In this document: positions 729 through 23,400 of the stretch, piece by piece | Numbering within the stretch: the first letter of the stretch is position 1 | Layout: every line of letters begins with the position of its first letter | Virus record (IMG/VR): IMGVR_UViG_3300020401_000081 | Span: 1 to 25,339 of that record | DNA: 25,339 nt | DNA from: a virus | Lineage: Duplodnaviria > Caudoviricetes | Reading direction: 5' to 3' (one strand) | Program-made: the position numbers and the translations under genes | The notes under the pieces: model-generated | Database searches by the model: none | What the model was told of the DNA's origin: nothing | Seen by the model: the letters and a program-made list of their open reading frames with translations, nothing else

Positions 729-1567
729 CAACTAAATTAAATATATTAATTGCCTATCCTTATTGTAACGAGCCAGTTATGGAATTATTAAAAAAATTTC
801 CAAAAAATGATTTACGGTTTGTTTTAGATAGTGGTGCATTTACAGCATGGAAAAGTGGCAACCCTATTGAGTTAGACGATTATTGTACTTTTTTAGAAAA
901 ATTGCCAATAAAACCTTGGCGTTATTTTACGCTTGATGTGATTGGCGACCCTGATAAAACAGCAGTTAATTTTGAAAAAATGCTTGAGCGAGGTTTTAAC
1001 CCAATACCTATTTATCAGCCCGGCGAAGATATTAAAGCTTTTGATTATTTTTATAGCAAAAGTGATGTTGTTGCTATTGGAGGAATTAATGGGTTTAGGG
1101 GTAAAAAAAGGAAAGGTTATATTCATGGGGCAATGAAAGTAGCAAACGGAAGAAAAGTTCATTTACTAGGTTTTACAAATATGGATTATATAAAACTTTA
1201 TAAACCTTATATGTGTGATTCAAGCACATGGGAAAACGGTGCAAGATATGGTTATTTAATGATGTATATGGGGAGAGGTCAATTTGAAAAAATACAAAAA
1301 CAACTTTTTAAAACAAAAGTAGGTAATACAAAAATATTATCAAGGATTAAACATTTTGGAATTGATCCATACCTGATGGCTAAAACTGAATCATGGCATG
1401 GCGGTGTTTCACGAATAAGAACATTATCGGCAAGAAGTGGTGTTGCTTTATCAGTTGATGTAGAAAAATACTTAAATACAAAATTATTCTTAGCATTAAT
1501 AACAGATATGGCTTTTGAGCTTTTATCCAAAAGCTTTAATTATCTTTACAGAGGAGGACAATCGTGA
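725..1567 (+). CDS. dpdA: DpdA-like (TGT-fold) guanine transglycosylase, probable 7-deazaguanine DNA insertase
   Basis: TGT-superfamily motifs VLDSGAFTAW (D35), LDVIGD (D71), VAIGG, KVHLLG and CDSSTW (D165). No C-terminal Zn-binding CxCxxC. Lies directly upstream of folE/queD/queE. Confidence 0.8.
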   Translation: MTTKLNILIAYPYCNEPVMELLKKFPKNDLRFVLDSGAFTAWKSGNPIELDDYCTFLEKLPIKPWRYFTLDVIGDPDKTAVNFEKMLERGFNPIPIYQPGEDIKAFDYFYSKSDVVAIGGINGFRGKKRKGYIHGAMKVANGRKVHLLGFTNMDYIKLYKPYMCDSSTWENGARYGYLMMYMGRGQFEKIQKQLFKTKVGNTKILSRIKHFGIDPYLMAKTESWHGGVSRIRTLSARSGVALSVDVEKYLNTKLFLALITDMAFELLSKSFNYLYRGGQS

Positions 1568-2244
1568 ACGAACCAATTTCCAAAACAATAAAAAAACGAA
1601 TTGAATTAGAAAATGGTAATTATTTTGCTAATGATAATATTGCTGATTTCATACATGATAATGAGCTTAAAGTTTTACAAGAAGAAGTAACCGAAAAAAT
1701 ACAAAGTTTATTGGAAAGCTTAATTATTGATACAAAATATGATCACAACACAATTGAAACTGCTCAAAGAGTAGCAAAAATGTATTTAAATGAAGTTTTT
1801 AAAGGACGTTATCATAAACAACCCAAAGTAACTGATTTTCCTAATGCTAAAAATTTAGATCAAATATATACAGTTGGAGCTATAAGTGTAAGAAGTGCTT
1901 GCTCTCATCATTTAGTGCCAATCATTGGTAAATGTTGGATAGGAGTAATTCCAAGTGATCGTGTTATAGGGTTAAGCAAATTTAATAGAATTGTAGATTG
2001 GGTAATGTCAAGACCACAAATACAAGAAGAAGCAGCTATTCAATTAGCAGATACTATTGAAAAATTAATTAAACCAAAAGGGTTAGCAGTAATAATTAAA
2101 GCCAAGCATCAATGTATGACTTGGCGGGGAGTAAAAGATAATGAAACTGAAATGGTAACAAGTGTTATGAGAGGTATTTTTAGGGAAACTGCTGAAGCTC
2201 GTAGCGAACTTATGGACTTATTTAAAGGACAAGGGTATAAATAA
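1564..2244 (+). CDS. folE: GTP cyclohydrolase I
   Basis: Motifs TAQRVAKMY, SACSHHLVP, IGLSKFNR, RPQIQE and HQCMTWRG. GTG start preceded by a GGAGGA Shine-Dalgarno. Confidence 0.95.
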   Translation: MNEPISKTIKKRIELENGNYFANDNIADFIHDNELKVLQEEVTEKIQSLLESLIIDTKYDHNTIETAQRVAKMYLNEVFKGRYHKQPKVTDFPNAKNLDQIYTVGAISVRSACSHHLVPIIGKCWIGVIPSDRVIGLSKFNRIVDWVMSRPQIQEEAAIQLADTIEKLIKPKGLAVIIKAKHQCMTWRGVKDNETEMVTSVMRGIFRETAEARSELMDLFKGQGYK

Positions 2245-2696
2245 TGGGAACATTTAAATCAACAAAAACTTATAAATCAACTAAAGGTTTTAGTTGTTGT
2301 TTTAGACAATTTAAAGCAACTTCTCATTGTAGATTTTTACATGGTTATTCATTAGAAATATATTTAGAATTTCAAGCAAAAAATTTAGACGAGCGTAATT
2401 GGGTTGTTGATTATGGTGGTTTAAAAGATTTAGAAAATAAATTTCGAAAATATTTTGATCATAAAACTTTAATTGATATAAACGACCCACATATAGAATG
2501 GTTTGAAGCTGGCCAAGATTTAGGGTTGTTAGATTTAGTTATTTTGGAAGAAGGGGTAGGAAGTGAAATGTTTGCTTTAAAAGTTTATAAATTAACCTCT
2601 GAATGGTTAAATAATAGTGAATATGCTGGACGTTGTGAAATAACAAAAGTAGAAGTAAAAGAACATGATTCAAATTCAGCATTTTATGTGCCATGA
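2244..2696 (+). CDS. queD: 6-carboxy-5,6,7,8-tetrahydropterin synthase (QueD/PTPS family)
   Basis: Motifs SHCRFLHGYS, WVVDYGGLK, FDHKTLI and VKEHDSNSA. TAATG overlap with folE. Confidence 0.9.
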   Translation: MGTFKSTKTYKSTKGFSCCFRQFKATSHCRFLHGYSLEIYLEFQAKNLDERNWVVDYGGLKDLENKFRKYFDHKTLIDINDPHIEWFEAGQDLGLLDLVILEEGVGSEMFALKVYKLTSEWLNNSEYAGRCEITKVEVKEHDSNSAFYVP

Positions 2697-3076
2697 TTAA
2701 TTTTAGTTGGAAGTCTTTTGACAGCGCAGTTAAATTAGCTGTTTCAAAATATAAAGATCAAAAATTTGTTGGTGTTTATGGTATTCCAAGAGGTGGTTTA
2801 TGTTTAGCAGTTGCACTTAGTCACCATTTAAAAATTCCATTATTAAATGCACCACAAGACAATTGTTTAATTGTTGATGATATTTATGATTCGGGAAAAA
2901 CCTTAGAAAAATACAAAAAATATAAAAATTGTAGTTATTACGTTTTAGTATCTAAGCAAGAACCTACATATTTTTCTAGCTATATAACAACTAAATCAAT
3001 GGGATGGGTTATTTTTGCTTGGGAAAGTGTCGAAAACGCTAAAGCAGATAAAGAGGAATATGATGCTAAAAATTAA
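2693..3076 (+). CDS. Small type I phosphoribosyltransferase (purine/xanthine-guanine PRTase-like)
   Basis: VYGIPRGGL loop, PRPP-binding motif LIVDDIYDSGKTL, and C-terminal WVIFAWE, like the WIxFPWE of Gpt-type enzymes. Confidence 0.88.
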   Translation: MINFSWKSFDSAVKLAVSKYKDQKFVGVYGIPRGGLCLAVALSHHLKIPLLNAPQDNCLIVDDIYDSGKTLEKYKKYKNCSYYVLVSKQEPTYFSSYITTKSMGWVIFAWESVENAKADKEEYDAKN

Positions 3077-3719
3077 TGAAATTTTTGACACTATACAAGG
3101 GGAAGCATATTTTACAGGTACGCCAGCAACTTTTATAAGGTTACAAGGTTGTCCAGTGGGTTGTGCTTGGTGTGATACTAAACATACATGGAATACAGGC
3201 GTAGAAAAGTTAAAAATTGAAATTGATGAAATGCTACACAAAACAAAAGATTCCCCAAAATGGTCTGAAGTTAGCGAAAGGGAACTTGTAAAAATTGTTA
3301 AAAATTTAAGACCTAGACATTTTGTGCTTACAGGTGGTGAGCCTTGTAGTCAAGATATTTTCGAATTAACAAGATTATTATCAAGTGTTGGAACAGTACA
3401 GGTTGAAACAAGCGGAACACATACAATTAATGTTTATCATAAAACGTGGGTTACTGTTAGTCCTAAAGTTGATATGCTTGGTGGCTTAAAAGTGCTTAAT
3501 TCAGCTTTATTACGAGCAAATGAGCTTAAAATGCCTATAAATGGGCTTAATGACGTTAAAAACCTTAAAAAATTAGTTAAAAAAATAAATTATGGACAAT
3601 TAGTTTGGTTACAACCAGTAAGCCAAGAACTACAAAATACGGAATTATGCGTTGAGACAGCAAAAAATAATAATTGGAGGATTAGTATTCAAACTCATAA
3701 ATACATGGGGGTAAGATAA
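3063..3719 (+). CDS. queE: 7-carboxy-7-deazaguanine synthase (radical SAM)
   Basis: Motifs INEIFDTIQGEA, FIRLQGCPVGCAWCDTKHTW (CxxxCxxC), TGGEP, VETSGT and IQTHKY. Start moved from 3015 to ATG 3063, which has GAGGA 5 nt upstream; 3060 is also possible. Confidence 0.95.
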   Translation: MLKINEIFDTIQGEAYFTGTPATFIRLQGCPVGCAWCDTKHTWNTGVEKLKIEIDEMLHKTKDSPKWSEVSERELVKIVKNLRPRHFVLTGGEPCSQDIFELTRLLSSVGTVQVETSGTHTINVYHKTWVTVSPKVDMLGGLKVLNSALLRANELKMPINGLNDVKNLKKLVKKINYGQLVWLQPVSQELQNTELCVETAKNNNWRISIQTHKYMGVR

Positions 3720-3724
3720 AAATT

Positions 3725-4225
3725 ATGGACGCTAAAGCCTACGCTATTCACAGAAAAGTAAGTGGGGCAATGATAACTAAATATCTTAAAAACGGTATGA
3801 TTCCAAGTGCTAAACAAATAGGAAGAAAATGGTATATTGACCCACAAAAAGCAGATATTGAACTAGATGCAGCATTAGGACGTACAGAAAAAGTAATTAC
3901 AAAAATACAACCTAAAGAATATATAGATCAAAGTCAAAAAACTCCTATGCCGTCACTAGCAGCAAATAGAGCAATAAAAGAAATGTATGCTGCAAGGTTA
4001 CAAAAACTTGAATTTGAGGAAAAAAGTAAAAAATTAGTGCCATTTGACGAATTAAAACTTAAATTAAGCAAGTTACATTTACAAGTAAGAGATAATTTAA
4101 GAACAATTCCTGATAGAATTTCACCAATAGTAGCTGCGGAAACTGATCCGTCAAAAATACATAATTTAATCTCTACTGAAATAAGAGAATGTTTGGAGGG
4201 ACTAAAATCAATTGACATTAGTTAA
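3725..4225 (+). CDS. Terminase small subunit (N-terminal HTH, C-terminal helical region)
   Basis: HTH-like N-terminus (AYAIHRKVSGAMITKYLKNG), coiled-coil region ARLQKLEFEE, and position immediately before TerL. Confidence 0.75.
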   Translation: MDAKAYAIHRKVSGAMITKYLKNGMIPSAKQIGRKWYIDPQKADIELDAALGRTEKVITKIQPKEYIDQSQKTPMPSLAANRAIKEMYAARLQKLEFEEKSKKLVPFDELKLKLSKLHLQVRDNLRTIPDRISPIVAAETDPSKIHNLISTEIRECLEGLKSIDIS

Positions 4226-6101
4226 AACATTAATTAAAGATTGCATTAATTGCTTACAGTTTGAAGAACCTTTAAATGTTGCTGAATGGGCTGAAAAGCA
4301 CAGAGTTTTAAGCAGTAAATCAAGCAGTGAAGCAGGTGCTTGGAAAAATAAAAGAACACCCTATTTAGTTGAGCCTATGGATTGTTTATCAACAGATAAT
4401 CCAGTTCAAAGAGTTGTATTACAATTTGCAAGTCAACTAGGCAAAACAGAAGCGGGTTCGAATTGGCTTGGATATGTTATATCTCATTCGCCAGCTAGTA
4501 TGCTTGTTATTCAACCAACTCTTGAAATGGCAAAAAGGTTAAGTCGGCAAAGACTTGAAGGTTTAATTAATGACACGCCTGTTTTAAATAATTTAGTAGC
4601 ACCAGCAAGAAGTCGAGATAGTGGCAATACTATGTTTTCAAAAGATTTTCCGGGAGGAATAATGGTTTTAACAGGAGCTAATAGTGCTGTTGGTTTAAGG
4701 TCTATGCCTTGTAGGTATATTTTTATGGACGAAATTGATGCTTTCCCACCTGATCTTGACAATGAAGGAGATGCTGTAAGTTTGGCTGAAAAAAGAACAA
4801 TGACATTTAGTAGGCGAAAAATTTTAATGACAAGCACTCCTACAATTAAAGATTTTAGTCGTATAGAACAAGAATATTTAGAATCAGATCAACGTAGGTA
4901 TTATATCCCATGTGTACATTGTGGTCATATGCAATATTTAAAATGGAGTCAAGTTAAGTGGGAGGACAATGATCCTAAAACTGTAAAATATGAATGTGAA
5001 AGTTGCAAAAAAACTTTTAAAGAAAGGGATAAACATTATTTTTTAGAACGTGGTGAATGGAGGGCAACTGCCCCTAGTGATGGTAAAACTGCCGGATTTC
5101 ATTTAAACGGTTTATATTCTCCTCTTGGTTGGAAGGGGTGGGAAGAAATTGTTGATGATTTTATAAAAGCAAAGTCTGATCCACAAAGATTAAAAACTTT
5201 TGTAAATACTGTTCTTGGGGAGACATTCGAAGAGAATTATGCAGCAAAAGTTGGTGCTGATGTTTTACTAGAAAGGGTTGAGTCTTATGAGTCCAATATG
5301 ATACCAGAAAAAGCTGTTGTTTTAACTGCTGGTGTTGACGTACAAGATAATAGGCTTGCTATATCTGTTTGGGGTTGGGGTCGTGGGGAAGAGGGGTGGT
5401 TAATAGATCATCAAGAAATATATGGTGACCCCTCAACTAGCGAATTATGGAAACAATTAGATCAATTATTATTAAGACCTTTTAGGCATGAATTAGGGGG
5501 TAGTTTTACACCTGATGTAATTGCTGTAGATAGTGGTGGTCATTTCACAAGCGAAGTTTATGCTTATACAAGGGACAGAAGAAAATATGGTGTTATAGCT
5601 ATAAAAGGTGCAAGTATTAAAGATAAGCCACCTATAGGAAAAGGTAAAAAATTAGATTTGAATTGGAAAGGAAGGGTAATTAAACGTGGAGCAGAATTAT
5701 TTACAGTAGGTACAGATACAATTAAAACAACATTATTTTCAAGATTACGTCATGTTGAAGAGGGTGCTGGTTATTTACATTTTAATATTAAAGCGGATGA
5801 AGAATATTTTAAACAGTTAACAGCAGAGAAACAAATAATTAGATTTGTAAAAGGTTTTCCTGTTAGGGAATGGGTTAAAAAATCATCAGAAAGAAATGAA
5901 GCTTTAGATACTACAGTTTATGCTTATGCTGCTTTGCATAGGCTTTATCAAAAACGAGATAGAAGAACAATTTGGGACGTTTATGAAGAAAGAGGACGAA
6001 TTAAGGACAAAATAAAAGAAAATAAGGGTGAAAAAGATTATATTAGTGAGCTAAGATCAAGAAAGAAGGCTCAAAAGCCTAAATTTATTTCATCATGGTA
6101 A
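4212..6101 (+). CDS. Terminase large subunit, lambda GpA family
   Basis: RTPYLVEPMD, Walker A ASQLGKTE, Walker B IFMDEID, STPT, CxxC pairs (CVHC, CESC), and nuclease motifs AGVDVQ, DSGG and NEALD. TTG start. Confidence 0.96.
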   Translation: MTLVKTLIKDCINCLQFEEPLNVAEWAEKHRVLSSKSSSEAGAWKNKRTPYLVEPMDCLSTDNPVQRVVLQFASQLGKTEAGSNWLGYVISHSPASMLVIQPTLEMAKRLSRQRLEGLINDTPVLNNLVAPARSRDSGNTMFSKDFPGGIMVLTGANSAVGLRSMPCRYIFMDEIDAFPPDLDNEGDAVSLAEKRTMTFSRRKILMTSTPTIKDFSRIEQEYLESDQRRYYIPCVHCGHMQYLKWSQVKWEDNDPKTVKYECESCKKTFKERDKHYFLERGEWRATAPSDGKTAGFHLNGLYSPLGWKGWEEIVDDFIKAKSDPQRLKTFVNTVLGETFEENYAAKVGADVLLERVESYESNMIPEKAVVLTAGVDVQDNRLAISVWGWGRGEEGWLIDHQEIYGDPSTSELWKQLDQLLLRPFRHELGGSFTPDVIAVDSGGHFTSEVYAYTRDRRKYGVIAIKGASIKDKPPIGKGKKLDLNWKGRVIKRGAELFTVGTDTIKTTLFSRLRHVEEGAGYLHFNIKADEEYFKQLTAEKQIIRFVKGFPVREWVKKSSERNEALDTTVYAYAALHRLYQKRDRRTIWDVYEERGRIKDKIKENKGEKDYISELRSRKKAQKPKFISSW

Positions 6102-6105
6102 AACT

Positions 6106-6687
6106 GTGACTATTCCAAAAAAAATAATTGCGGGAGACTACATTCAATGGACACTCAACGCAACACAAGATCATTTTGGCAATCCAATATCAAGCCCAGA
6201 GTGGTCGGTTGTTTATTATTTAAGAACTAATAAACAAAATTTTGCAGCTACTATCAATAGCACAGCACATGAAGATGGTTTTAAATTTACTATAAGTAAT
6301 GCCACATCAGCTACGTTTCCTGACGGTTTATGGTTTTATCAGGCTATGGCTAATAAGTCTGGTAATGAAAGACAAACTATAGCTCAGGGACAATTTACAG
6401 TTTTAGAAAGTACTTTATATTCTGGTAATAATCCAAAAGCATTTGATGGTAGAACACAATTAAGAAAAGATTTTGATGCTATAGAGGAAACAATAAGATC
6501 TTTAAGTACTGGACAAGCTGTTCAAGAATATAAAATAGGAAATAGAAGTTTGAAAAAATTTGATTTAACTGAATTAATTATTATTAGAGATAGGTATAAA
6601 AGAGATTTAATTAAAGAGGAAAAGCAACAAAAGATTGCAAACGGTGAGGGCAATCCTCATAATTTATATATTCGCACAAGAGGTTAA
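6106..6687 (+). CDS. Head-tail joining protein, gpW-like C-terminus with an N-terminal extension
   Basis: Lies between TerL and portal. C-terminal VQEYKIGNRSLKKFDLTEL resembles gpW-type adaptors. Confidence 0.6.
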   Translation: MTIPKKIIAGDYIQWTLNATQDHFGNPISSPEWSVVYYLRTNKQNFAATINSTAHEDGFKFTISNATSATFPDGLWFYQAMANKSGNERQTIAQGQFTVLESTLYSGNNPKAFDGRTQLRKDFDAIEETIRSLSTGQAVQEYKIGNRSLKKFDLTELIIIRDRYKRDLIKEEKQQKIANGEGNPHNLYIRTRG

Positions 6688-6689
6688 TT

Positions 6690-8162
6690 ATGGCTTGGCA
6701 TACACCAATTACAAGATTATTTAATAGGCAGCCAGAAGTAAAAAAAATACAAAGACGCAGATATGCTGGTGCAGCTATTTCACGTTTAACAGATGGTTGG
6801 GTATCAAGTAACACTTCAGCAGATGCGGAAATTAAGGTAAGTTTACGCAAATTAAGGGATAGAAGCCGTCAATTAATGCGAGATAACCCATATGCAAAGC
6901 AAGCTAAGAGAACAACACAAATAAATGTTATTGGTCAAGGTGTAAAACTTCAGTGCATGGTTCCAGCTATTAGAGGTAAGAAAAAAGATAAAAAATTAAG
7001 CATGATGATTGAAGCAGAATGGAAAAAATGGTGCAAAAGAGATAACTGTGATGTATCAGGTCAAAAAAGTTTTTTTATGCTTGAAAATTTAGCAGTCGGA
7101 GCTTTGGTTGAAAGTGGTGAAGTATTTTTAAGAATAGTCAGAAGAAAATTTGGTAAAAGTACAGTTCCTTTGGCATTAGAAATTATTGAAAGTGATTTAT
7201 TAGATGATGAATATTCTGGTAAACCAGCAAGAAAAGGAAATGAATGGAGAATGGGAATTGAGGTTGACAAATTTGGTAGGCCACAAAGATATGCCTTTTT
7301 AAATAAACATCCGGGCGACAACTGGTTTGAAAATAGTTATGAGAATCAAAAACATACAATTATAAATGCCAACGATATTATTCATTTATTTATACAAGAA
7401 CGTCCCGGACAAAATAGAGGTGTGCCTTGGCTAAGTTGCGTAATGGACGATATGCACCAAATGTCGGGCTATGAAAGTGCAGCCGTAATTCGAGCCAGAG
7501 CTGGAGCAAGTTTGATGGGTTTTATTAGTTCAACTGAAGGTGAGTTAGAAGCTGATGATGTACAAGAAGAACAAAGACTAACTGATTGGGAAGCAGGTGT
7601 TTTTAAATACTTAAATCCGGGCGAGGAAATTACAGTGCCTAATATTAGTAGCCCTGACAGTCAATATGAAATGTATGTAAGAGCCAAAATTAGAAGGTTC
7701 GCTTCTGGACTAGGCTGTTCCTATGAAACTATAAGTCGTGATTTCAGCGAAACTAATTATTCTAGTTCTCGTTTAAGTTTGTTGGAAGATCGGGAACATT
7801 GGAAAATGCTACAAACATTTATTATTGAAAATTTACATCAAAGAGTATTTGAGGAATTTTTAGATGCTGCTGTTTTATCAGGTTCATTAAATTTACCTGA
7901 TTATGAATTAACACCTTTAAGGTATTCAAACCCAAGATGGCAGGCTAGGGGTTGGAGTTGGGTTGACCCTAAAAAAGAAATTGAAGCTTTTAGAATGGGT
8001 GAAGCTGCTGGTTACTATACAAAAGGTGAAATTGTTTCAATGTTAGGTAAAGATTTCGAAGACAATATAGATCAAATTAAGGCGGAACAAGAAACTTTAA
8101 GCGAGTCTGGAGTTCAATTAGACCTAGATTTAGGTGGCGGAACTACTATTAGTGAAAACTAA
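6690..8162 (+). CDS. Portal protein, lambda family
   Basis: Motifs LRDRSRQLMRDNPYA, RPGQNRGVPW, NYSSSRLSLLE and WSWVDPKKE. Confidence 0.95.
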   Translation: MAWHTPITRLFNRQPEVKKIQRRRYAGAAISRLTDGWVSSNTSADAEIKVSLRKLRDRSRQLMRDNPYAKQAKRTTQINVIGQGVKLQCMVPAIRGKKKDKKLSMMIEAEWKKWCKRDNCDVSGQKSFFMLENLAVGALVESGEVFLRIVRRKFGKSTVPLALEIIESDLLDDEYSGKPARKGNEWRMGIEVDKFGRPQRYAFLNKHPGDNWFENSYENQKHTIINANDIIHLFIQERPGQNRGVPWLSCVMDDMHQMSGYESAAVIRARAGASLMGFISSTEGELEADDVQEEQRLTDWEAGVFKYLNPGEEITVPNISSPDSQYEMYVRAKIRRFASGLGCSYETISRDFSETNYSSSRLSLLEDREHWKMLQTFIIENLHQRVFEEFLDAAVLSGSLNLPDYELTPLRYSNPRWQARGWSWVDPKKEIEAFRMGEAAGYYTKGEIVSMLGKDFEDNIDQIKAEQETLSESGVQLDLDLGGGTTISEN

Positions 8163-8527
8163 GAGTCTTTTTCTTTTTCGCAATGTGGACAAGATGGCGG
8201 GTCAAGAACTAGCTCTTTCATCATTGCTACAAGAAAAAGAATAGCAACCATAGAAGGCGGTTGGTCAATATTAAATGGAAGTTTAGAGTGTTTATTTTGT
8301 GGGAAACTTACCCCATCATAAGCAACACAAACAGTATGCTCTGTATCAGTAGGATTAATAACTTGGCTAAAAATGCAACCTGTAGTTAATTCATTTGTAT
8401 TTTCATCACGCAAATGAACATAGGTTGGGTTGTAATTTTCAAAATCTAGACCCGCTTGTGCGAGTCCAGATTCAAGGTGTTCTAAAAATTCAGTTACTCT
8501 TGGGTCAAGTGTAAAATCTTCGGTCAT
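8159..8527 (-). CDS. Hypothetical protein, acidic, with C-terminal CPHC motif
   Basis: 122-aa ORF with GGAGG 9 nt upstream of its ATG, inside the preceding gene's end. Its stop overlaps the portal stop. Fills an otherwise non-coding gap. Confidence 0.7.
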   Translation of the reverse strand: MTEDFTLDPRVTEFLEHLESGLAQAGLDFENYNPTYVHLRDENTNELTTGCIFSQVINPTDTEHTVCVAYDGVSFPQNKHSKLPFNIDQPPSMVAILFLVAMMKELVLDPPSCPHCEKEKDS

Positions 8528-8529
8528 TT

Positions 8530-9351
8530 TTAATAACCTCCTAAACGTCTTTGACTGCTACCAGACATTTGTCTGCTTAAACCAACTTGACTGCCAGCCG
8601 CACGACCAGCACTTGCACCTGAGCCACCTGTTTCATAGCCTGATCCACCTCTTCCAATACTTGGGTAACGTTCAGCATAAAACTCTTCAACCTTAGCTAA
8701 TTCCGCTTTATTGGCTTTAGTAATAGCTAAAGCAGAAACGTTAATAGTTTTACTAGCTAATTTTAATTGAGTACCGTTTCTTTCTTCATCAGCTTTCATT
8801 TTTTCGAAACGTGCTTCAACTTCCCAAGCCCAATTCTTTCTAAAACTGTTTCTATGTGCTGCACCTTCCATAGCAACTTGAAATGGGTCTTCTTGACAAT
8901 GTCTCGCCCAAGCATCTTGTAATGCTTGTACTAAGTAATCTGTATAAATTTCTATTTCTATCTTTCTAGCTTTGTTAGCAGTGATTTCCATTTGTCTATA
9001 TATGTCACCTTTTTTATCTCTTATGTATTCTTTTTGATGTTTTTGGTTTCCACTTCTTTCAAACTTAAAAGGAGTAAAAACAATTTTACCGTTATAGTAA
9101 TCAGCAACAGCACCAACAATAATTGAAACTGCTGGGTCAATACGTTTGTAAGGTGTTCCGTATCTAAAAGCAATAACTTCAATTTCTTCCTCAACTACAG
9201 ACATATCGCCTAGTTGTGCTTCTAATTGGTCAAGGTCAATTCCTCGTTTTTCAAGTTGCTGCTGTAATTTAGCTTTTGCTAAATTTGCTTCATGTGGATT
9301 AGTACTTTCAGTTAGTGCTAATAATTTGCCTAAAAATGAAGTGTCTCTCAT
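8530..9351 (-). CDS. DUF2786-domain protein
   Basis: N-terminal KLLALTESTNPHEANLAKAKLQQQLEKRGI matches the DUF2786 pattern, followed by the RNSF motif and a Gly-rich tail. Start reassigned to ATG 9351 (GAGG at 9361-9364, 9 nt spacing). Confidence 0.8.
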   Translation of the reverse strand: MRDTSFLGKLLALTESTNPHEANLAKAKLQQQLEKRGIDLDQLEAQLGDMSVVEEEIEVIAFRYGTPYKRIDPAVSIIVGAVADYYNGKIVFTPFKFERSGNQKHQKEYIRDKKGDIYRQMEITANKARKIEIEIYTDYLVQALQDAWARHCQEDPFQVAMEGAAHRNSFRKNWAWEVEARFEKMKADEERNGTQLKLASKTINVSALAITKANKAELAKVEEFYAERYPSIGRGGSGYETGGSGASAGRAAGSQVGLSRQMSGSSQRRLGGY

Positions 9352-9373
9352 TTTGTAATTCCTCAATGGGGTG

Positions 9374-9403
9374 AATAGTTAGAGTTATCATTCCCTAACT
9401 ATT
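9374..9403 (-). other. Inverted repeat / 5'-leader hairpin
   Basis: AATAGTTAG (9374-9382) and CTAACTATT (9395-9403) form a perfect 9-bp inverted repeat, extendable to 11 bp with a G-U pair on the minus-strand RNA. It starts at about the predicted +1. Confidence 0.65.
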
Positions 9404-9406
9404 GTT

Positions 9407-9436
9407 AATATAACATATATACTAAGCATACGTCAA
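9407..9436 (-). promoter_or_regulatory. Sigma70-type promoter for the reverse-strand two-gene cassette
   Basis: Minus strand reads TTGACG (9436-9431), 18-nt spacer ending in TGn, then TATATT (9412-9407): a near-consensus -35 and extended -10. Confidence 0.7.
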
Positions 9437-9487
9437 CTATTAATAACAAAATATTCTGATAATATGTTGTATATCTAATATTTAAGA

Positions 9488-12444: not shown

Positions 12445-12448
12445 AAAA

Positions 12449-12832: not shown

Positions 12833-12837
12833 TATAT

Positions 12838-13582: not shown

Positions 13583-13593
13583 TTAACGCTATT

Positions 13594-14653: not shown

Positions 14654-14676
14654 TTATATATTTACTTTTTATAAAT

Positions 14677-14714
14677 AAGGGTTAAACTGTGCGTTACATG
14701 GTTTAATCTTTTTT
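14677..14714 (+). terminator. Long hairpin plus U-tract after the tail tube gene (terminator/attenuator-like)
   Basis: AAGGGTTAAACTGTG-CGTTA-CATGGTTTAATCTTT forms a 15-bp stem including G-U pairs, then TTT and the next ATG. Confidence 0.6.
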
Positions 14715-15122
14715 ATGGCACTAATTATTAACAAAGTTAAGACTTTTAAATGGACAGTTGAATATGAATATCCAGTAGATGATGATTTTGTAGAGGTTAA
14801 ATTTAAAGCTATTTTTAAGCGTATGCCACAAAAATTTCTTAATGAAATGGCAAAAAAAGCAACGCCAAAAAAAGATAAAGACGGAAATGAATTACCTAGT
14901 GATTTTGACCCTTTGGAATTATGTGAAAAGGTACTTATAGGGTGGGAAGATGTTTTTGTAATAAATGATAAAGGCGAAGAAGTGGAAGTTCCTTTTAATA
15001 AAGAAAATTTAAAAGAAATATTGCAAATTCCAATGTTAACTATGTATTTAGCAAAAACATTTTATGAAGGTCAAACAGGAAGAAAACTAAAAAACTTAGA
15101 GGGGCAGTCGATCATCTCTTAA
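14715..15122 (+). CDS. Tail assembly chaperone (gpG equivalent)
   Basis: VLIGWEDV...VPFNKENLKEIL pattern, position, and slippery site near the 3' end. Confidence 0.85.
   Translation: MALIINKVKTFKWTVEYEYPVDDDFVEVKFKAIFKRMPQKFLNEMAKKATPKKDKDGNELPSDFDPLELCEKVLIGWEDVFVINDKGEEVEVPFNKENLKEILQIPMLTMYLAKTFYEGQTGRKLKNLEGQSIIS
15089..15095 (+). other. Programmed -1 ribosomal frameshift site A AAA AAC
   Basis: Heptamer is in the X XXY YYZ phase of the gpG frame. The -1 frame is open from here to 15427. Confidence 0.8.
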
Positions 15123-15427
15123 ACGGTGGTGTTGAAGATAAATCGCATGATGATGCTGCTGTTTTAGGTATTAAAGGGCTGCCCTCACTAAGAGTAGAAA
15201 AAGATTTTGAAGTATGGGAAGAACATTGGGAGTCAGTAATGTTTTTTATAAGAATGATGACTCAGTGGAGAACTACTATGGGAGGTGTTATTGGTTTTGA
15301 TTATAATGTTTTACAAATGCTATTTGACTTGTATGATGTAGATAATCGTAAAGAAATTTTCGAAGATATACAAGTCATGGAACGTGAAGCTATGATACAC
15401 ATGAATAAAGATAGGAAAGGTAAATAA
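15095..15427 (+). CDS. gpT-equivalent C-terminal part of the G-T frameshift fusion (DUF1799-like)
   Basis: -1 frame reads LRGAVDHLLNGG...FEVWEEHWESVMFFIRMMTQWRTTMGGVIGFDY...IQVME. The ORF-track entry 15239..15427 is only its last part. Confidence 0.8.
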   Translation, partial: LRGAVDHLLNGGVEDKSHDDAAVLGIKGLPSLRVEKDFEVWEEHWESVMFFIRMMTQWRTTMGGVIGFDYNVLQMLFDLYDVDNRKEIFEDIQVMEREAMIHMNKDRKGK

Positions 15428-17898
15428 TGGCTTTAAATTTAGATACAACTTTTAAACTAAAAGCAAAAGTTGAAGGTGCAAAATCTGTTGATAATTTTAA
15501 AAAACAATTAAGGGGATTAGACACTAGCTCGAAACTTAGCAAAGTACAGCTAGGTAAAATGAATATTGAAATTAACAGAATGGCTAGGGCTGCTGGTAAT
15601 ACAACAAAAGGTTTAAGGGAACATATTAGGGCATTAACTTTATTAAGGGACAGAACTGATATAGGTGGTAAGGCTTATAAAAGGTTAGGTAATCAAATCG
15701 ACAGATTAAAAAGTAAATTAAAAGGTTTAGACGGTCAAGCTGCTAGTACTGGTCAAAAATTAGCAGGTCTTGTTGCTACTTTAGGTGTTGGCAGGGGTAT
15801 TAGACGTATTATTGGAGGTGCTACAAGTTATGAAGCAGAAGTTACAAAAGCTGCTGCTATTGAAGGGGGTGGTAATAAAACACAACTTGATGATGCTATT
15901 AAAAGTACAGCACAAGTAGCAGCAGGTACGCCTACTGAAGTTGCACAGTTGGCTACTACTTTATCAAGAGCAGGTTTTAATGCAGATGAAATATCTGTAT
16001 CCCTAAGAGATATTGTGGCTGCTGCTGAAGCTACTGATGTGTCTTTTGCAGAAATGGGTTCTATTGCATCAAATAATTTAAGAGCTATGGGTTTAGAAGC
16101 TAACAGGGCAGGTGACGTTTTAGATATTTTAGTCTCTACTGCTAACAGTTCGAACCAAACAATAGGAGATTTAGGCGAATCATTAAAATATACAGCACCT
16201 ATGGCTAGAACTTTTGGTGTAAATATGAATGAAGCTGCTGCTATGACAGCACTTTTAGCAAATAGTGGTATTAAAGGAAGTGATGCTGGTACAGCCTTAA
16301 GACAAGTATTTACTAGATTAACAATGGCTGCAACAGGGGCTAACGGCGAACTTTTAAATTTAACCAAAGGTAATGCAAAACTGTCTAAAGCATTTAAACA
16401 TTTAGGAGCAGATATTTTAGATGCAAATGGTAATTTAAAACCTATGGATCAAGTAATAATGAGTTTAAGGGACAGTTTTCAACAAGTAGGTAATCTTGGA
16501 CAAAAAGCAGAAGTAGCTAAAGCATTATTTGGTCAACAGCAAGGTAGTAAAATATTAGCTCTTATAAACCAAACAGATTTAGATGTAGCAAAATTGTTTG
16601 ACACTATAAGAAATAGCGGTGGGACATCGGCAGAAACTAGAAAAAATATGGATAGCTTTGCTATGACTACAAAAGTTTTAGGAGGTAACTTTGAAATATT
16701 AACTAATCAAATTGGTGGTGCTTTTATAGCAGTTTTAGACCCTTTAGCAAAAATAATAAATCAATTTTTAACTGATTTATCAAAACTTCCTAAACCGATT
16801 AAAGATTTTGGTGCTGGTTTGGCTGCTGCTGGTTTGGCTGCTTTAGCTCTTAAAATAACAATGGTAACTCTGACAACTTTTGGAATTAAAGCTTTAATAT
16901 TTTCAAAAGTAGCAGCAGCGTTTGTGTTATTGAAAAAAGCTTTAATCGGAGCAAAAGTGGCAATGATAGCTTTTAATTTAACAAATCCTCTTGGATGGGT
17001 AGCTTTAGGAGTGGGAGCATTAGTACTTGCAATTGCAAAAATAAGAGAATTTAAAGATGAAATTGGTAACTTTTTTAAGGCCGTAAGAGATGGGCTTTAT
17101 AGATACGTTGTAATTGCATTTAATGCCCTTCCAAAATTTTTAAGAGAATTTTTAATTGGTAAAAATAACAGAGCAGCAGGTGATGATTTTACAATTACTT
17201 TGCCAGAAGTAAAACCACCAAAAGACCCAGAAAACATAGTTGAAGGTAAATCAAACTTAGATGCTGCTGGTGGTGGTATTACTCCTGAAACTGGTGATGA
17301 ACAAAAAACTGTATTAGATGGTATGAAAAGTGCTATAACTGATTATCAAGCAAAAGTAAATGATGTTGCTGGTAATGTAAAAAATGCAATGTCAAATGCT
17401 TTTCAAGGTATGGAAGATGCACTTGTTAATTTTGTTATGACAGGAAAACTTGCTTTTGGAGATTTAGCAAGATCAATAATTGAAAGTATGGCTCGTATAG
17501 CAATACAACAAACAATTATGAAACCATTTACTAATTGGTTTAGTGGTTTATTGGGTAATGCAAAAGGTAATGTTCTTCAAGGAGGAGAAGTTCAAAAATA
17601 TGCTTACGGTGGAACAATCGTAAATCGTCCCACTATGTTTCCTATGAAGAATGGAATGGGTTTAATGGGCGAAGCTGGTGCGGAAGCTATAATGCCGCTT
17701 AAACGTGGCAGTGACGGCAAATTAGGTGTAATGTCTCAAGGTGGGGGAAGTAATGTTGTAAATGTTTCAGTTGATGCTGGTAATACTAACGCTCAAGGTA
17801 ATAACGCAAAAGCACAACAATTAGGCAAAATGATAGGTCATGCTATTCAAGCAGAGTTAGTTAAACAGAAAAAGCCCGGAGGAATACTTTATAGCTAA
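15427..17898 (+). CDS. Tail tape measure protein (TP901-type core, lambda-type C-terminus)
   Basis: 823 aa, helical. Motifs LGESLKYTAP, LANSGIKGSDAGTALR, MEDALVNFVMTGK and MGEAGAEAIMPL. Confidence 0.95.
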   Translation: MALNLDTTFKLKAKVEGAKSVDNFKKQLRGLDTSSKLSKVQLGKMNIEINRMARAAGNTTKGLREHIRALTLLRDRTDIGGKAYKRLGNQIDRLKSKLKGLDGQAASTGQKLAGLVATLGVGRGIRRIIGGATSYEAEVTKAAAIEGGGNKTQLDDAIKSTAQVAAGTPTEVAQLATTLSRAGFNADEISVSLRDIVAAAEATDVSFAEMGSIASNNLRAMGLEANRAGDVLDILVSTANSSNQTIGDLGESLKYTAPMARTFGVNMNEAAAMTALLANSGIKGSDAGTALRQVFTRLTMAATGANGELLNLTKGNAKLSKAFKHLGADILDANGNLKPMDQVIMSLRDSFQQVGNLGQKAEVAKALFGQQQGSKILALINQTDLDVAKLFDTIRNSGGTSAETRKNMDSFAMTTKVLGGNFEILTNQIGGAFIAVLDPLAKIINQFLTDLSKLPKPIKDFGAGLAAAGLAALALKITMVTLTTFGIKALIFSKVAAAFVLLKKALIGAKVAMIAFNLTNPLGWVALGVGALVLAIAKIREFKDEIGNFFKAVRDGLYRYVVIAFNALPKFLREFLIGKNNRAAGDDFTITLPEVKPPKDPENIVEGKSNLDAAGGGITPETGDEQKTVLDGMKSAITDYQAKVNDVAGNVKNAMSNAFQGMEDALVNFVMTGKLAFGDLARSIIESMARIAIQQTIMKPFTNWFSGLLGNAKGNVLQGGEVQKYAYGGTIVNRPTMFPMKNGMGLMGEAGAEAIMPLKRGSDGKLGVMSQGGGSNVVNVSVDAGNTNAQGNNAKAQQLGKMIGHAIQAELVKQKKPGGILYS
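16812..16842 (+). repeat. 15-bp tandem duplication inside the tape measure gene
   Basis: TGCTGGTTTGGCTGC x2, encoding AGLAA AGLAA. Confidence 0.7.
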
Positions 17899-18266
17899 TG
17901 GCAACTTTTGACACACAAACAGTTGGATCGGATGTATCCCCAAGTTTTACTCCTAATTTAAGCATTGAAAATAATGTTATTACAAATAAATTAGGAGATA
18001 ATTATGAACAGCGTATAGTTGCTGGTTTAAATTCAACAGTAAGAACATGGACATTGCCTTTTAATAATCGAGATGATGTCTCAACAACAAATATTTTAAA
18101 TTTTTTAGCTAGTTCAACAGGTGGCAATAATGGTACAAAAAGTTTTAATTGGACTCCCCCTTATGGTAATACTGGCAAATGGGTATGTGAAAATCCAACA
18201 GTTGAAAAAGTTGCTTATAACATTAACAATATTCAATTAGTTTTTCGAGAAGTATTTGAAGCATGA
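17898..18266 (+). CDS. Minor tail protein M-like (distal tail)
   Basis: Motifs LGDNYEQR, GLN, SFNWTPP and FREVFE. Confidence 0.85.
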   Translation: MATFDTQTVGSDVSPSFTPNLSIENNVITNKLGDNYEQRIVAGLNSTVRTWTLPFNNRDDVSTTNILNFLASSTGGNNGTKSFNWTPPYGNTGKWVCENPTVEKVAYNINNIQLVFREVFEA

Positions 18267-19201
18267 CAATACCAATTGACGAATTACAAAAAACTAATCC
18301 AACAGCAATAATTACATTGTTTGAATTACAGTTAATTGAAGGCTTGCATTATCCAACAGGAAATCCTAGTAATCAAATAACTATTTATAGATGGCACTCA
18401 GGTGTCGCTCAAAATGCAACAGGAGAACTAATATTTGGTGGACAAACTTATAGTCAAATGCCTATAGATGCGGAAGGTTTTGATTATAAAGGTACTAATA
18501 AAGGATCAAATTTACCTAGACCAACTTTGAGAATAAGTAATTTATTATCAACTGTATCAACTATTTTACAAGAAATTAATAACATCACACCTAATAATGA
18601 TTTGATTGGTGCTGTATTAACAAGGAAACGAACCTTTGCCAAATTTATATCTGCGTCAAATACTAGCGGTCAAACTATAACTTATGTTGTTACTGTTCAA
18701 AATGTTGGTGGAGCTAATTATTTTTATATAAATGGTGTTTATAAACCCTCTTTAAGTTTAGTTGGAGGTAATACATATAGATTTATACAGTCAGATTCAT
18801 CTAATACAAATCACCCTTTAATTTTAAAAACTGCTAGTGGTTCAACAATTTTTAATAATCAAAATGGTGGTTTAGTGGCTACTGGAACAGCAGGGATTGA
18901 TAGAATAGTTGTTTATTTAGCAAGTACAAATGCAAGTTATAATGCTGCAAAATATTCATGCTCAGTACATGGCGATAATATGGGAAATACAATAAGTGTT
19001 TCAGCAGCACCAAGTAATCCAGACGAAGATGCTTCAATGCGTTGTGAAGATGATGTATATGTTATTGATAGAAAATCGTCTGAGAACAGGGAAATAGTTG
19101 AATTTGAGTGTGCTGCCAAACTCGACACTCCAACAGTACAATTACCAAGACGTCAGGCTTTGCCAAGAGAATTTCCGGGAATAGGATCATTTCATGCTTA
19201 G
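18263..19201 (+). CDS. Minor tail protein L-like with internal cupredoxin-like insertion
   Basis: gpL motifs PIDAEGF, PRPTLRISN, GAVLTRKRTFAKFI, IDRKSSENREIVEFE and LPRRQ. Insertion spans about aa 134-250. Confidence 0.85.
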   Translation: MTIPIDELQKTNPTAIITLFELQLIEGLHYPTGNPSNQITIYRWHSGVAQNATGELIFGGQTYSQMPIDAEGFDYKGTNKGSNLPRPTLRISNLLSTVSTILQEINNITPNNDLIGAVLTRKRTFAKFISASNTSGQTITYVVTVQNVGGANYFYINGVYKPSLSLVGGNTYRFIQSDSSNTNHPLILKTASGSTIFNNQNGGLVATGTAGIDRIVVYLASTNASYNAAKYSCSVHGDNMGNTISVSAAPSNPDEDASMRCEDDVYVIDRKSSENREIVEFECAAKLDTPTVQLPRRQALPREFPGIGSFHA

Positions 19202-19898
19202 TTGGCAACAAGAAGCAGAATTACATTCAAAACAATGTTATCCAGAAGAAGCTTGCGGATTAGTATATATATTTAAAGGTAAAACAAAATATAAAGCTTG
19301 TAAAAATATATCAATTAATCCCAAAGATACTTTTATTATTGACCCTTTAGAATATGCCGAAATTTTTGATAAAGCTTCAATTATAGGTGTTTTTCATTCT
19401 CACCCTATTGACCAACCCTATCCAACACCAGCAGATAAAGCGATATGTGAAAAATATAAATATAAATGGCATATATATTCTGTTGATTTCAACAACTGGT
19501 ACAGTTTTGAACCAAGTGGCTATAAAGCACCATTAGTGGGACGTGAATATGTATTTGGAATACATGATTGTTGGAGTTTAATAAGGGATTATTTTGAAAC
19601 TTTAAATATTAAATTAAGAGATTGGGATAGACCAATTAACCCTCAAGATTTTTGTGATAATCCCTATTTTGAAAATTGTTTTGAAAAAACAGGTTTTAGG
19701 GAATTAAAACCTAATGAAAGTTTAAAAGAAAATGATTGTATATTATTTTCGCTAAATAGTACTGGATTAAATCATATAGGGGTATTATTGAAGAATCAGA
19801 TGATTTTACATCACATAGAGGGTAGAGTGAGTTCAAAAGATTTCTATGGAGAATGGTTAATGAAATGTACAGGTAAGAGGATTCGTTATGTTAAGTAA
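19194..19898 (+). CDS. Tail assembly protein K (JAB/MPN + NlpC/P60)
   Basis: JAB motifs PEEACG and FHSHP...D. NlpC/P60 motifs DCWSLIRDY, NHIGV and ILHH. Confidence 0.92.
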   Translation: MLSWQQEAELHSKQCYPEEACGLVYIFKGKTKYKACKNISINPKDTFIIDPLEYAEIFDKASIIGVFHSHPIDQPYPTPADKAICEKYKYKWHIYSVDFNNWYSFEPSGYKAPLVGREYVFGIHDCWSLIRDYFETLNIKLRDWDRPINPQDFCDNPYFENCFEKTGFRELKPNESLKENDCILFSLNSTGLNHIGVLLKNQMILHHIEGRVSSKDFYGEWLMKCTGKRIRYVK

Positions 19899-20493
19899 AA
19901 TAAAACTATATGGCGAGCTTTCTGAAAAATGTAATGGCCATAATGAGTTACAAGCTGTATTAAATAGACCTGTTGATGCCATAAGATTTTTGATTAATAA
20001 TTTTAATAATTTGGAAAAACATATTATTGAAAATAATTATAAAGTTATTGTTGATGAAGAAAATATTGAAGAAGTTGAACTTAATTTTCCAAGTAGGCCA
20101 AAAGAAATAAAAATAATACCAGTAATAAGTGGATCAGGTAATGTTGGCAAAATTATTGCTGGAGTTGTTTTAATTGGTGCTGCTGTTGCTTTTAGTGGTG
20201 GTGCTGGTCTTGGCATTTTAGGTAAACCAATAGTATCGTCAGCTGGTGTTTTTAGTGGGGCTGCATTAGCTGGAAAAGTCGGAATGGTTTTACTTTTATC
20301 AGGTGTTGCAGGTTTGTTGTCTCCTACACCTGATGTTCCCGAAGAAGAAGGAGATCCTACAAAATCATTTAGTTTTAATGGGGTGCAAAATAACGCAAGA
20401 GCAGGTATTCCAATTCCGATTTGCTATGGTCATGTTTTAGTCGGTAGTATTCCAGTATCAGCTTCAATAACCACAGTTGACATAGAAGTATGA
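19888..20493 (+). CDS. Tail assembly protein I
   Basis: IKLYGEL start, IKIIPVISGSG, Gly-rich hydrophobic stretch, and SFSFNG...GIPIPICYG. Confidence 0.9.
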   Translation: MLSKIKLYGELSEKCNGHNELQAVLNRPVDAIRFLINNFNNLEKHIIENNYKVIVDEENIEEVELNFPSRPKEIKIIPVISGSGNVGKIIAGVVLIGAAVAFSGGAGLGILGKPIVSSAGVFSGAALAGKVGMVLLLSGVAGLLSPTPDVPEEEGDPTKSFSFNGVQNNARAGIPIPICYGHVLVGSIPVSASITTVDIEV

Positions 20494-23400
20494 CTAACAA
20501 TTTTATCAAAGGCTCTGGCGGGGGCGGTGGTGGTAAAGGTGGTGGCGGTGGTTCAAGGACACCAACAACCGCAAAAGATTCATTAAATAATAGAAGTTTT
20601 GCAAATATTTTAGATGTAATTTCGGAAGGGGAAATTGATGGAATACATGATCCCGGAGGTTTTACAAATAGTTTTCATCAATCAATTTTTTTTAATAACA
20701 CACCCTTAAAAAATGCTGATGGGACTGATAATTTTAATGATGTAAAAATAGATGTTAGAAACGGCACTCCTATACAAAATGTAATTACAGGCTTTAACAA
20801 AAGCTCAAGTCCTGTTCCTGTTAGTTTAGAAATAACAAAAAGTACTCCTGTTACTTTTACAATTACTGATACAAGTGTTACAAGTGTAATTATAGATATT
20901 GGGATTCCAGCCCTTCAAAAAGTAAACAAAGACGGTGACACGAAAGGTACTGAAGTTATATTTAAATTTTTAAAAAGTCAAAATAATAGTAGTTTTCAAA
21001 ATATAAGTATTAATGGCACTGTAAATCAAAAAATAACAGGCAGAACAGGCGACTTATATCAAAGGCAATATGAATTTAATATACAAGGTAATAATTTTCC
21101 TGTTCAATTTCAAGTACAACGAATAAGTGATGATGATTCAACAATTAATAATAATAACAGTGATAATTTAATTAATCATACAAGTGCAATACAATTAAGG
21201 TCTTATCAACTTGTAAAAGATTTTGATAATCCTATACAAGGTACTTTTTCACAGTCAGGCACTACTATTACAGTTAATACAACTGAGCCACATACTAAAG
21301 TTCTTGGAGATAGTTTAGGTTTTGAATTTATAAATGACGGTACACATCAACAATTTACTTTTAGTGGCAATAATCAAGTTAAAAATAATAATTATACAGG
21401 TGCTAGTAATGGTAACTTTCAAATTGCATCAATTATTAGTAGCACAAGTTTTACAGTTGAACATACTGAATCAAAAAACGTAGCTAATGGTTCTTGTAAA
21501 TTTTATAGGGTATTAAATTATCCAAACTCAGCTTTAGTTGGTATTAAATTAGATGCTGAACAATTTAATTCAATACCAAGAAGAGCGTTTTTAATAAATG
21601 GTATAAAAGTAAAAATTCCAGCAGCAAACTCAACTGGTACACCAGTTGTAGTGAGAAACGCTACTCAGGCTGCCAGTTTAGGTATTTCAAATGCAAATCA
21701 AATTAAAAGTTTTGGTTTTATACATTATCCAAACGGATACATATTTGATGGTAATTTAACTGCTGCTCAATATACAAATGACCCTGCTTTTTGTTTGTTG
21801 GACATTTTATTATCTGAAAGATATGGTTTAGGTCAATTTTTAAAGTTAAGTGATTTAGATATATATAGTTTTTATTCAATTAGTAAATATAGTTCCGAGT
21901 TAGTAACTTTTAAAGACAGAAGAAATGATGGTCAAGTGGAAACAATCAAAGAGCCTAGATTTTCTTTGAATTGTGTTATTCAAAAAAGGGAAGATGCTTT
22001 TAAAATCATCAATAATCTTTGTTCAGTATTTAGGGGTATGCCATTATACTCTGCTGGATCGTTAACTTTATTACAAGATCGAGATGGTTTAGATCCTACA
22101 TTTATTTTCAATAAAACAAACGTAACTCCTGATGGTTTTACTTACTCAGGTTCATCTCAAAAAACAAGAGCAAATATCGCAGTTATTAAATATTTTGATA
22201 ATGAACTAAGAGACTCAGCTTATGAAGAGGTTATTGACGAAGATGATGTAGCAAAATATGGAGCAATAACAAAAAATTTAAATAGTTTTGGCGTAACATC
22301 TCGAACTCAAGCTAGACGTCTTGGCAAATGGTTTTTAACAACATTAAAAACTGAAACTGAAACTGTTAATTTCACAACCACATTAGAAGCAGGCTCTTTA
22401 TGCAGACCCGGACAAATAATCGAGATACAAGACCCTGTTAAAAGCGGTGTCAGAAGAGGTGGTCGAATTTTAAATATTCAAACTGTAAATAATAATCATG
22501 TTATTACTACTGACGAAGCAAACCTTCCTAACAATTTAACAAGTACTGTAAGTGTAATAATGTCAAACGGACAATTTAGTAAAAAAAATGTATCCACAAT
22601 AAATACTTCAAATAAAACAATAACAATAAATGGCAAATTTGATATTTTGGTAAATGACTCAAATGGAAATAAACCTTTTTTAGATTCTTTACAACCAAAT
22701 CCTGATTATGTAAAAACCACACAAGTAGCAACACCTAATTTAAATTCAGTTTGGATTTTAGAAACTACAGGGAACTCACAACAAACAATTCTTTCACAAC
22801 AATTTAAAGTTATATCTGTTGAAGAAGAAGACGATTATATGTATTCAATAACAGCAGTGTCACATAATGAGTCTAAATATGCTCATGTAGAGCAACTAGA
22901 AACTTTAATTCATCGAGATATAACTAATTTAGATGAAATACCGACAGCCCCAGAAAACTTTTCTAATGCTGTTTTGTCTGATGGTAGCACTGTAAATTAT
23001 CCAATTGAATCATTATATAAATATAGAGATCAAGTAAAAGTAAGAGTTATAGTTCAATGGAAACCAGTTGTAGGCATTAGTAAATACGAATTGATTTATA
23101 ACCAAGATAATAAGAGTGAAATTGTTGTAACAACTCAAAGCCCTAGTTTTGACATTGATGATGTCAATGTAAATACTGCCACAAGCTCAATTTTTAACTT
23201 TAAGGTAAAATCTATAAGTGGATCAGGCCGAAAATCAACAGATACTTTAGAAACTTCTTTAACAGTTCAAGGTAAAAATTCACTCCCAAGTCAAGTTAGT
23301 TCAGATTTTAGTGGTCAAATAGATTCTAATTTAGGAATACAATTATCATGGACTCCAATAGAAGCTATCCCACCATTTTTTAGAGATCTTGATATAAGGG

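Follow-up and report, generated by a model that had tools for sequence, protein, structure and literature searches.

The sequence described here, positions 1 to 25,339 of the viral record IMGVR_UViG_3300020401_000081 (25,339 nucleotides [nt]; hereafter the window), belongs to an uncultured marine, lambda-like siphovirus encoding parB, dpdA, folE, queD, a phosphoribosyltransferase-like gene, queE, the terminase, the portal, a protease-capsid fusion and tail genes, and it contains no copy of CCWGG (W, A or T), the site recognized by EcoRII- or MvaI-type enzymes. We consider classic avoidance of a Type II restriction site, selected by a CCWGG-cutting enzyme that we infer in the host, to be the best explanation of this absence (probability roughly 0.75), and the loss is likely to be a commonplace trace of restriction evasion, unconnected with the deazaguanine system, since relatives lacking these genes show either the same loss or the converse one, of CCGG. 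The window is contained in, and forms the first half of, a second record, G001 (49,752 nt), which carries tail fibres, RecE/RecT, SSB and many small genes in its remaining part.

Absence of CCWGG from the window and from a longer record

Exact counts of CCAGG and CCTGG across the window were 0 and 0, as the first-pass annotation of this DNA had reported. An order-2 Markov null predicted 23.6 copies, while shuffling of synonymous codons with the proteins held fixed predicted 11.7±1.9, in line with the dozen or so that the annotation had estimated; none of 2000 shuffles gave 0, and the minimum was 4. The window holds ten CCNGG words, every one a CCSGG (S, C or G) and each an in-frame Pro-Gly pair, at exactly the ten positions that had been read as CCC- or CCG-coded Pro-Gly. 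The accompanying remark that proline is otherwise mostly CCA or CCT was also accurate, as these account for 87% of the proline codons in the window (142+119 of 300). The pairs, preceded by the CCWGG-free span itself, are as follows:

1..25339, no strand assigned: CCWGG-free span, which by word counts also lacks GGNCC, ACCGG, CGCG, ATGCAT, ACTAGT, YACGTR and GDGCHC
1019..1024, + strand: Pro-Gly CCC-GGC in dpdA (amino acid 99), in-frame CCSGG
4650..4655, + strand: Pro-Gly CCG-GGA in the large terminase gene terL (amino acid 147), in-frame CCSGG
7311..7622, + strand: three Pro-Gly in the portal gene (7311 CCG-GGC, 7404 CCC-GGA, 7617 CCG-GGC)
12137..12142, + strand: Pro-Gly CCC-GGA in the protease-capsid fusion
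17875..17880, + strand: Pro-Gly CCC-GGA in the tape measure gene
19175..19180, + strand: Pro-Gly CCG-GGA in minor tail protein L (gpL)
20652..22412, + strand: two Pro-Gly, both CCC-GGA (20652, 22407), in tip attachment protein J (gpJ)

As a junction control, we compared proline codons before glycine, which ended in W 0 times and in S 10 times, with those before other G-starting codons, which ended in W 66 times and in S 3 times (Fisher P=2e-10). The depletion therefore persisted in a codon-pair-aware comparison as well as under the Markov and codon-shuffled nulls, the checks that the annotation had proposed. In G001, CCWGG was again absent against 21.3 copies expected from codon shuffling (minimum of 2000 shuffles, 12) and 49 from the Markov model; all 17 Pro-Gly pairs were written with CCC or CCG, and the junction control gave 0 W and 17 S versus 122 W and 10 S (P=9e-16). 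Thus, the 24.4 kilobases (kb) outside the window, where gene calls are longest-open-reading-frame guesses, repeat the absence. Frames other than Pro-Gly avoided the word too, with NCC before TGG or AGG found in 0 of 63 cases and CAG in a C-Gln-G context in 0 of 15. The loss was specific to CCWGG, given that ACWGG, GCWGG, TCWGG and CAWGG had observed-to-expected ratios (O/E) of 0.96–1.07 in G001 and CGWGG one of 0.82.

These data bear on two explanations that need no enzyme. The first invokes either a codon-pair bias of translation at Pro-Gly or chance together with base composition, most CCWGG opportunities in AT-rich DNA being Pro-Gly pairs; however, the other frames are empty as well, close relatives (TerL genes 76–79% identical) use only CCW at Pro-Gly, and the Markov, codon-shuffle and junction nulls all exclude chance, so that we regard this explanation as refuted and its probability as practically negligible. 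The second is mutational decay, in which the methylated inner C deaminates and CCWGG becomes CTWGG without selection. CTWGG was indeed the only single-change neighbour besides CCSGG found in excess, with an O/E of 1.34 in 15 CCWGG-free contigs against 1.06 in 9 CCSGG-free ones and 134 copies in G001 where 107 were expected. Deamination cannot, however, convert CCA or CCT into CCC or CCG at an invariant Pro-Gly, and purged Prochlorococcus podovirus P-GSP1 has just 126 CTWGG against 115 expected. We give decay little weight because the CTWGG excess is as large in podoviruses that keep CCWGG (148/127 in 9515-10a, 151/126 in NATL1A-7 and 175/145 in SS120-1); with the synonymous CCW-to-CCS flips it is largely refuted, and we hold it to be extremely unlikely.

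An assembly artefact was also rejected, since G001, which is an independent record, agrees with the window, as do relatives whose TerL genes are 79–89% identical. Window and G001 differ at 16 positions (at 1884, 3179, 7487–7514 and 8700–8716), 14 of them in two tight clusters; all are synonymous in the four genes they touch and look like recombination patches or strain variation between assemblies.

Other erased sites and the choice between CCWGG and CCGG

CCWGG is not the only site to have been lost. On a list derived from REBASE (279 sites of 4–6 base pairs with at least 8 copies expected), CCWGG was one of 23 that were nearly erased from G001 (O/E of 0.15 or less), the others including CGCG, GGNCC, RCCGGY, WCCGGW, ATGCAT, ACTAGT, CTGCAG, CAGCTG, GTMKAC and YACGTR. 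Among plain 6-mers, erased words were enriched in REBASE words (8/100) and palindromes (5/26) as compared with other words (12/1386). The total disappearance of short Type II sites, most of them palindromes, is also what the survey of Rusinov et al. 2018 (PMC6286503) describes; there, orthodox Type II sites are the ones typically eliminated from non-temperate double-stranded DNA phages. The present phage showed no integrase or methyltransferase match among 65 open reading frames scanned, although profiles can miss divergent genes. The term CCWGG is absent from the main text of that survey. It also reports that coliphages with a DNA hydroxymethylase show almost no avoidance, while this phage has a modification cassette and yet purges 23 sites.

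As a side observation, non-palindromic words are strongly depleted in G001 too: CCTGAA (2 observed, 33.7 expected), GCAGGA (1/20), CGATG (6/33) and GAGGC (6/27). The depleted sites of the list do not include CCTGAA, GCAGGA or GAGGC; the first of these is depleted in the myovirus P-HM2 as well (2/38). The four words may be sites of undescribed enzymes or of other defence systems.

In a further difference from the surveyed cases, the purge extends to the proteins. GGNCC occurs 0 times in the window and once in G001 and, since every Gly-Pro codon pair holds GGNCC, its loss accounts for the near-absence of Gly-Pro dipeptides, of which the window has none (about 22 expected) and G001 a single one (39 expected). 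Pro-Gly dipeptides in G001 numbered 17 against 39 expected. In an alignment of TerL, column 125 is Gly-Pro in all 8 distant outgroups and in none of the 19 core low-GC rows; the branch that includes this phage has also exchanged Pro-Gly for Ala-Gly at column 71 and for Pro-Ala at column 124.

Pro-Gly itself poses an either-or. In any CCN-GGN pair a third base A or T creates CCWGG and C or G creates CCGG, so Pro-Gly cannot escape both. Outside CCSGG, G001 has 2 CCGG against 22.2 expected; with CCGG nearly erased elsewhere, Pro-Gly halved and Gly-Pro almost gone, the CCS-GG pairs still present are those forced on the phage where a residue cannot be changed. Of the 18 CCSGG in G001, 16 read CCCGGA, a preference that follows from the loss of RCCGGY and WCCGGW. 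There was no cytosine halo around these 18 sites: at distances of up to 15 nt, C made up 0.15 and G 0.16, against 0.17 genome-wide.

Relatives have settled the conflict in both ways. Among 48 low-GC contigs of partly shared ancestry (L019, L117 and L135 being left out of 51), 30 lacked CCWGG, 12 lacked CCSGG, 4 had neither word and 2 had both. The TerL Pro-Gly at window position 4650 is present in all 29 aligned rows that cover it, and its proline codon is CCS in all 14 of the CCWGG-free relatives, whereas all 6 of the CCSGG-free ones have CCT. On a TerL tree (FastTree, one gene, recombination possible), the CCSGG-free state appears at separate places, namely G003/G004/L013/L023, L103 (nested within the CCWGG-free group L016/L017/L020) and the more distant L111 and L116, from which the state has evidently switched more than once among these sequences.

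Cultured phages show both states. Among nine Prochlorococcus podoviruses, two purge CCWGG (P-GSP1 and P-SSP3), four lack CCGG (P-SSP10 and 9515-10a being examples) and three use mostly CCW, while two Synechococcus podoviruses purge neither word. P-GSP1 (NC_020878) has 0 CCWGG against 36.5 expected, all of its 24 Pro-Gly written CCS and 7 purged sites in common with this phage; the corresponding values for P-SSP3 (NC_020874) are 1 against 37.2, all 28 and 5. Both differ from it in being T7-like, in lacking a DpdA match and in keeping CCGG and GGNCC, which are both nearly lost here. The myoviruses P-HM2 and P-SSM2 had no CCGG in the 50 kb counted for each. We found no published work on the Pro-Gly trade-off, nor any published CCWGG or CCGG enzyme in Prochlorococcus, in a literature search that did not cover supplements and in which most subscription papers were out of reach; tables of PMC6286503 and PMC8262939 could bear on both points. 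The choice can be scored from sequence alone, and cultured phages in either state (P-GSP1 and P-SSP3, P-SSP10 and 9515-10a) are available.

The modification slot and DpdA

The first-pass annotation had proposed that the missing CCWGG may indicate which guanine contexts DpdA leaves unmodified. The genes concerned lie in a variable slot at the left of the window:

123..728, + strand: ParB-N protein, bounding the slot of variable modification genes on the left
725..1567, + strand: DpdA-like deazaguanine DNA transglycosylase (phrog_887, E 2.6e-31; 28% to CAjan DpdA over amino acids 6–179)
1564–2244, + strand: folE
2244–2696, + strand: queD
2693–3076, + strand: phosphoribosyltransferase-like gene
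3063–3719, + strand: queE
3725..6101, + strand: terminase genes, small and large, the latter of lambda gpA type, bounding the slot on the right; TerL was used for the tree

We compared the parB-terS slot (window 123–4225) in L002–L004, L008–L011, L013, L016–L018, L022, L023, L112, L228 and L231. In this clade the slot is filled by one of three predicted DNA-modification cassettes that replace one another: dpdA-folE-queD-queE, to which queC, Gat-QueC or a methyltransferase-like gene may be added; a CmoA-like gene accompanied by a ParB-methyltransferase fusion; and a 3'-phosphoadenosine-5'-phosphosulfate (PAPS)-reductase-like gene with a second ParB-like gene, the last set being a likely DNA-modification module by its predicted genes.

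A purge of CCWGG as a context that this DpdA leaves unmodified, so that the gap maps its specificity, has several points in its favour. All 9 core dpd contigs lack CCWGG, and the word holds neither GA nor GGC, the motifs known for DpdA: the enzyme of Escherichia phage CAjan marks GA and GGC (PMC7544227), and that of Pseudomonas phage iggy has the motif GA (PMC10484667). The prevalence of CCCGGA among surviving CCSGG could be read in the same way. However, the 9 dpd contigs form one TerL branch, and CCWGG is equally absent where other cassettes are present (L008 and L009 of the CmoA type; L016, L017 and L231 of the PAPS type), although these five are fragments and dpdA could lie elsewhere. The DpdA profile also found no match in the complete genomes of P-GSP1 and P-SSP3, while the CAjan control matched. 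Conversely, dpdA occurs without the purge in CAjan, which keeps CCWGG (63 observed, 72.8 expected in the first 50 kb, the part counted) while purging CTGCAG and CAGCTG, in L112 (5/15.8), and in 43 of 50 other dpdA loci (taken from L151–L225 by requiring a length of at least 8 kb, which 54 of these 75 reach, and at least 6 expected copies, with duplicates kept). The CCCGGA preference is likewise found in L008 and L009, which carry no dpd cassette, and was rejected as a signal of GA modification. Since loss of CCWGG and possession of dpdA are each found without the other, the word is no indicator of DpdA; in the sequences compared the loss is independent of the cassette, and DpdA as its cause is rejected. 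We therefore consider the proposal about unmodified contexts very unlikely, and the gap says nothing reliable on DpdA specificity.

A weak hint of another kind came from words that dpd-carrying relatives keep. Of 74 words purged in both non-dpd groups, ten had an O/E of at least 0.9 in the dpd group (e.g. TTCGAA, 21/21, and GGGAC, 57/52), and all ten hold GA (8) or GGC (2); they amount to about five overlapping families, and host differences are a confounder. A comparison of GA with non-GA words (26 versus 44) gave P=0.073 in a Mann-Whitney test on overlapping words from one branch, with a cut-off set after looking. Against such a hint, TTCGAA is absent from dpd-carrying G002, G005 and L112, and the GA words GAATTC, ATCGAT, CCTGAA and GAATGC are still purged despite the dpd cassette, as are GATATC, TCTAGA and CGWCG in G001.

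The systems of CAjan and iggy share dpdA with folE, queD and queE, and the DpdA encoded here is homologous to that of CAjan; the modification itself is a predicted one. G001 differs in lacking queC, for which PF06508 found no match in its 49.7 kb while the controls L003 and CAjan matched, and therefore the base is uncertain and might derive from host preQ0 or from 7-carboxy-7-deazaguanine (CDG; PMC10516641).

Further details of the slot and of its word usage were as follows. In the clade's dpd cassettes, as in the high-GC contig L021, queD and queE are separated by a short phosphoribosyltransferase-like gene. The CmoA-like gene stands beside a 509-amino-acid ParB and methyltransferase-like fusion and a 157-amino-acid gene (781–3430 in L010; 769–3418 in L228). 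The fusion does not contain the SPPC motif that defines CmoX (PMC12783734) and thus may be a different carboxymethyl-transfer enzyme. The PAPS-reductase-like and ParB-like genes, in some cases with a GNAT acetyltransferase, occupy 753–3106 in L013 and 732–2403 in L016. The dpd group retains TTCGAA, GGGAC, CTGGAC, TCSGAA and ACGCY-type words, all of them purged in the CmoA and PAPS groups; the CmoA group has the lowest levels of GATC and RGATCY (21/73 in G003), and only the PAPS group keeps CAGCTC.

Probable host and proposed selecting enzyme

The cultured phages nearest in TerL are the Synechococcus phages S-CBS1 and S-CBS3 (45%), which have the same lambda-like head and tail order; the exonuclease VIII of this phage is 41% identical to that of S-CBS1. 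S-CBS3 differs in its GC content of 61% and in keeping both CCWGG (138/146) and CCGG (181/198). For one G001 gene, all 361 matched phage records were named Synechococcus, Prochlorococcus, Cyanophage or Marine virus, and two G001 genes matched almost solely cyanophage records. Gene matches thus strongly suggest affiliation with the cyanophages. The host is likely to be Prochlorococcus, a genus assignment that rests on a GC content of 34% and on purged sites in common with this phage, of which each Prochlorococcus podovirus has 2–7 and the two Synechococcus podoviruses have 0. A search of genome contigs for hosts returned 6 loci, none cyanobacterial by title. The idea that the CCWGG gap would serve as a fingerprint for host prediction holds to this extent at the level of genus (2–7 versus 0 shared sites), while it fails at that of strain, since the MED4 phages P-GSP1 and P-HM2 are in opposite states; host prediction from the gap is therefore weak.

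In the explanation that we favour, restriction-site avoidance, some hosts, predicted to be Prochlorococcus, would carry an endonuclease that cuts unmethylated CCWGG, and only CCWGG-free phage genomes would survive in them. The selecting agent would be an orthodox Type II endonuclease of EcoRII or MvaI type (for the MvaI recognition site, see PMC3001055) present in part of the host population. In this lineage CCWGG enzymes may kill more often than CCGG-type enzymes, so that the phage would write its remaining Pro-Gly as CCC or CCG while relatives settle the same conflict in the other way. Prochlorococcus genomes typically have 0–1 restriction-modification systems, and therefore the long erased list would reflect the enzymes of many host strains added together. 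The DpdA pathway would be a separate, exchangeable layer that did not cause the purge. Hence the earlier suggestion of selection by a host CCWGG system stands as the best reading, with a putative enzyme, while its tie to the deazaguanine modification does not.

Several observations weigh against restriction-site avoidance. Both the CCWGG endonuclease and the host that would carry it are predicted from phage sequences. The 0–1 restriction-modification systems typical of Prochlorococcus genomes (PMC8262939) fit badly with 23 erased sites unless many strains were met. Plain 5-mers show hardly any enrichment (1/41 REBASE words erased versus 4/461 others), and several erased words, such as CCTGAA and GCAGGA, have no matching site in the list used. 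Because the low-GC contigs are related by descent, some of them being almost identical copies, the 30 without CCWGG and the 12 without CCSGG are not independent counts. Finally, isolation host is no predictor of the state, P-GSP1 and P-HM2 having both been isolated on MED4.

We also considered an orphan Dcm-type methyltransferase in the host, whose methylated CCWGG would be cut by modification-dependent (Type IV) enzymes of the next host, so that the phage would be avoiding methylation. This predicts the same sequence footprint and suits hosts with few complete restriction-modification systems (PMC8262939). It leaves unexplained, however, the joint loss of about two dozen unrelated sites; the survey links extreme avoidance to orthodox Type II sites (PMC6286503), and its enzymes too are putative. 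We consider it quite unlikely. In favour of restriction-site avoidance, no C5-methyltransferase was found in G001 with PF00145. A phage-encoded CCWGG methyltransferase as the reason why some relatives keep CCWGG was rejected as well, PF00145 giving no match in 5 of 5 records (three of them less than 90% complete).

Restriction-site avoidance would make this phage a clean case of a known defence-evasion footprint, site avoidance itself being well known (PMC6286503). That many sites are erased, with amino acids changed, in phages of a genus thought to be restriction-poor suggests that pressure on open-ocean cyanophages may exceed what cultured host genomes indicate. A doubtful but possible extension joins these observations: wild Prochlorococcus would comprise host groups with CCWGG- or CCGG-cutting enzymes, the proline codon at Pro-Gly would be a one-bit record of the group last beaten, flipping on host shifts, and, in siblings that swapped three different cassettes in one slot, it would be the sites kept under DpdA (TTCGAA, GGGAC, TCSGAA), and not CCWGG, that reveal its target (GA, perhaps GGC).

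Two minor features remain. Between portal and capsid, the minus strand (8159–9366) carries two genes, one of 122 amino acids without a family match and one of 278 amino acids with weak DUF2786/DUF7168 hits and phrog_421. L092, a 6.7 kb phage contig in a Bacteroidota metagenome-assembled genome, has a DpdA 99% and a TerL 94% identical to those of this phage and is likely misbinned.

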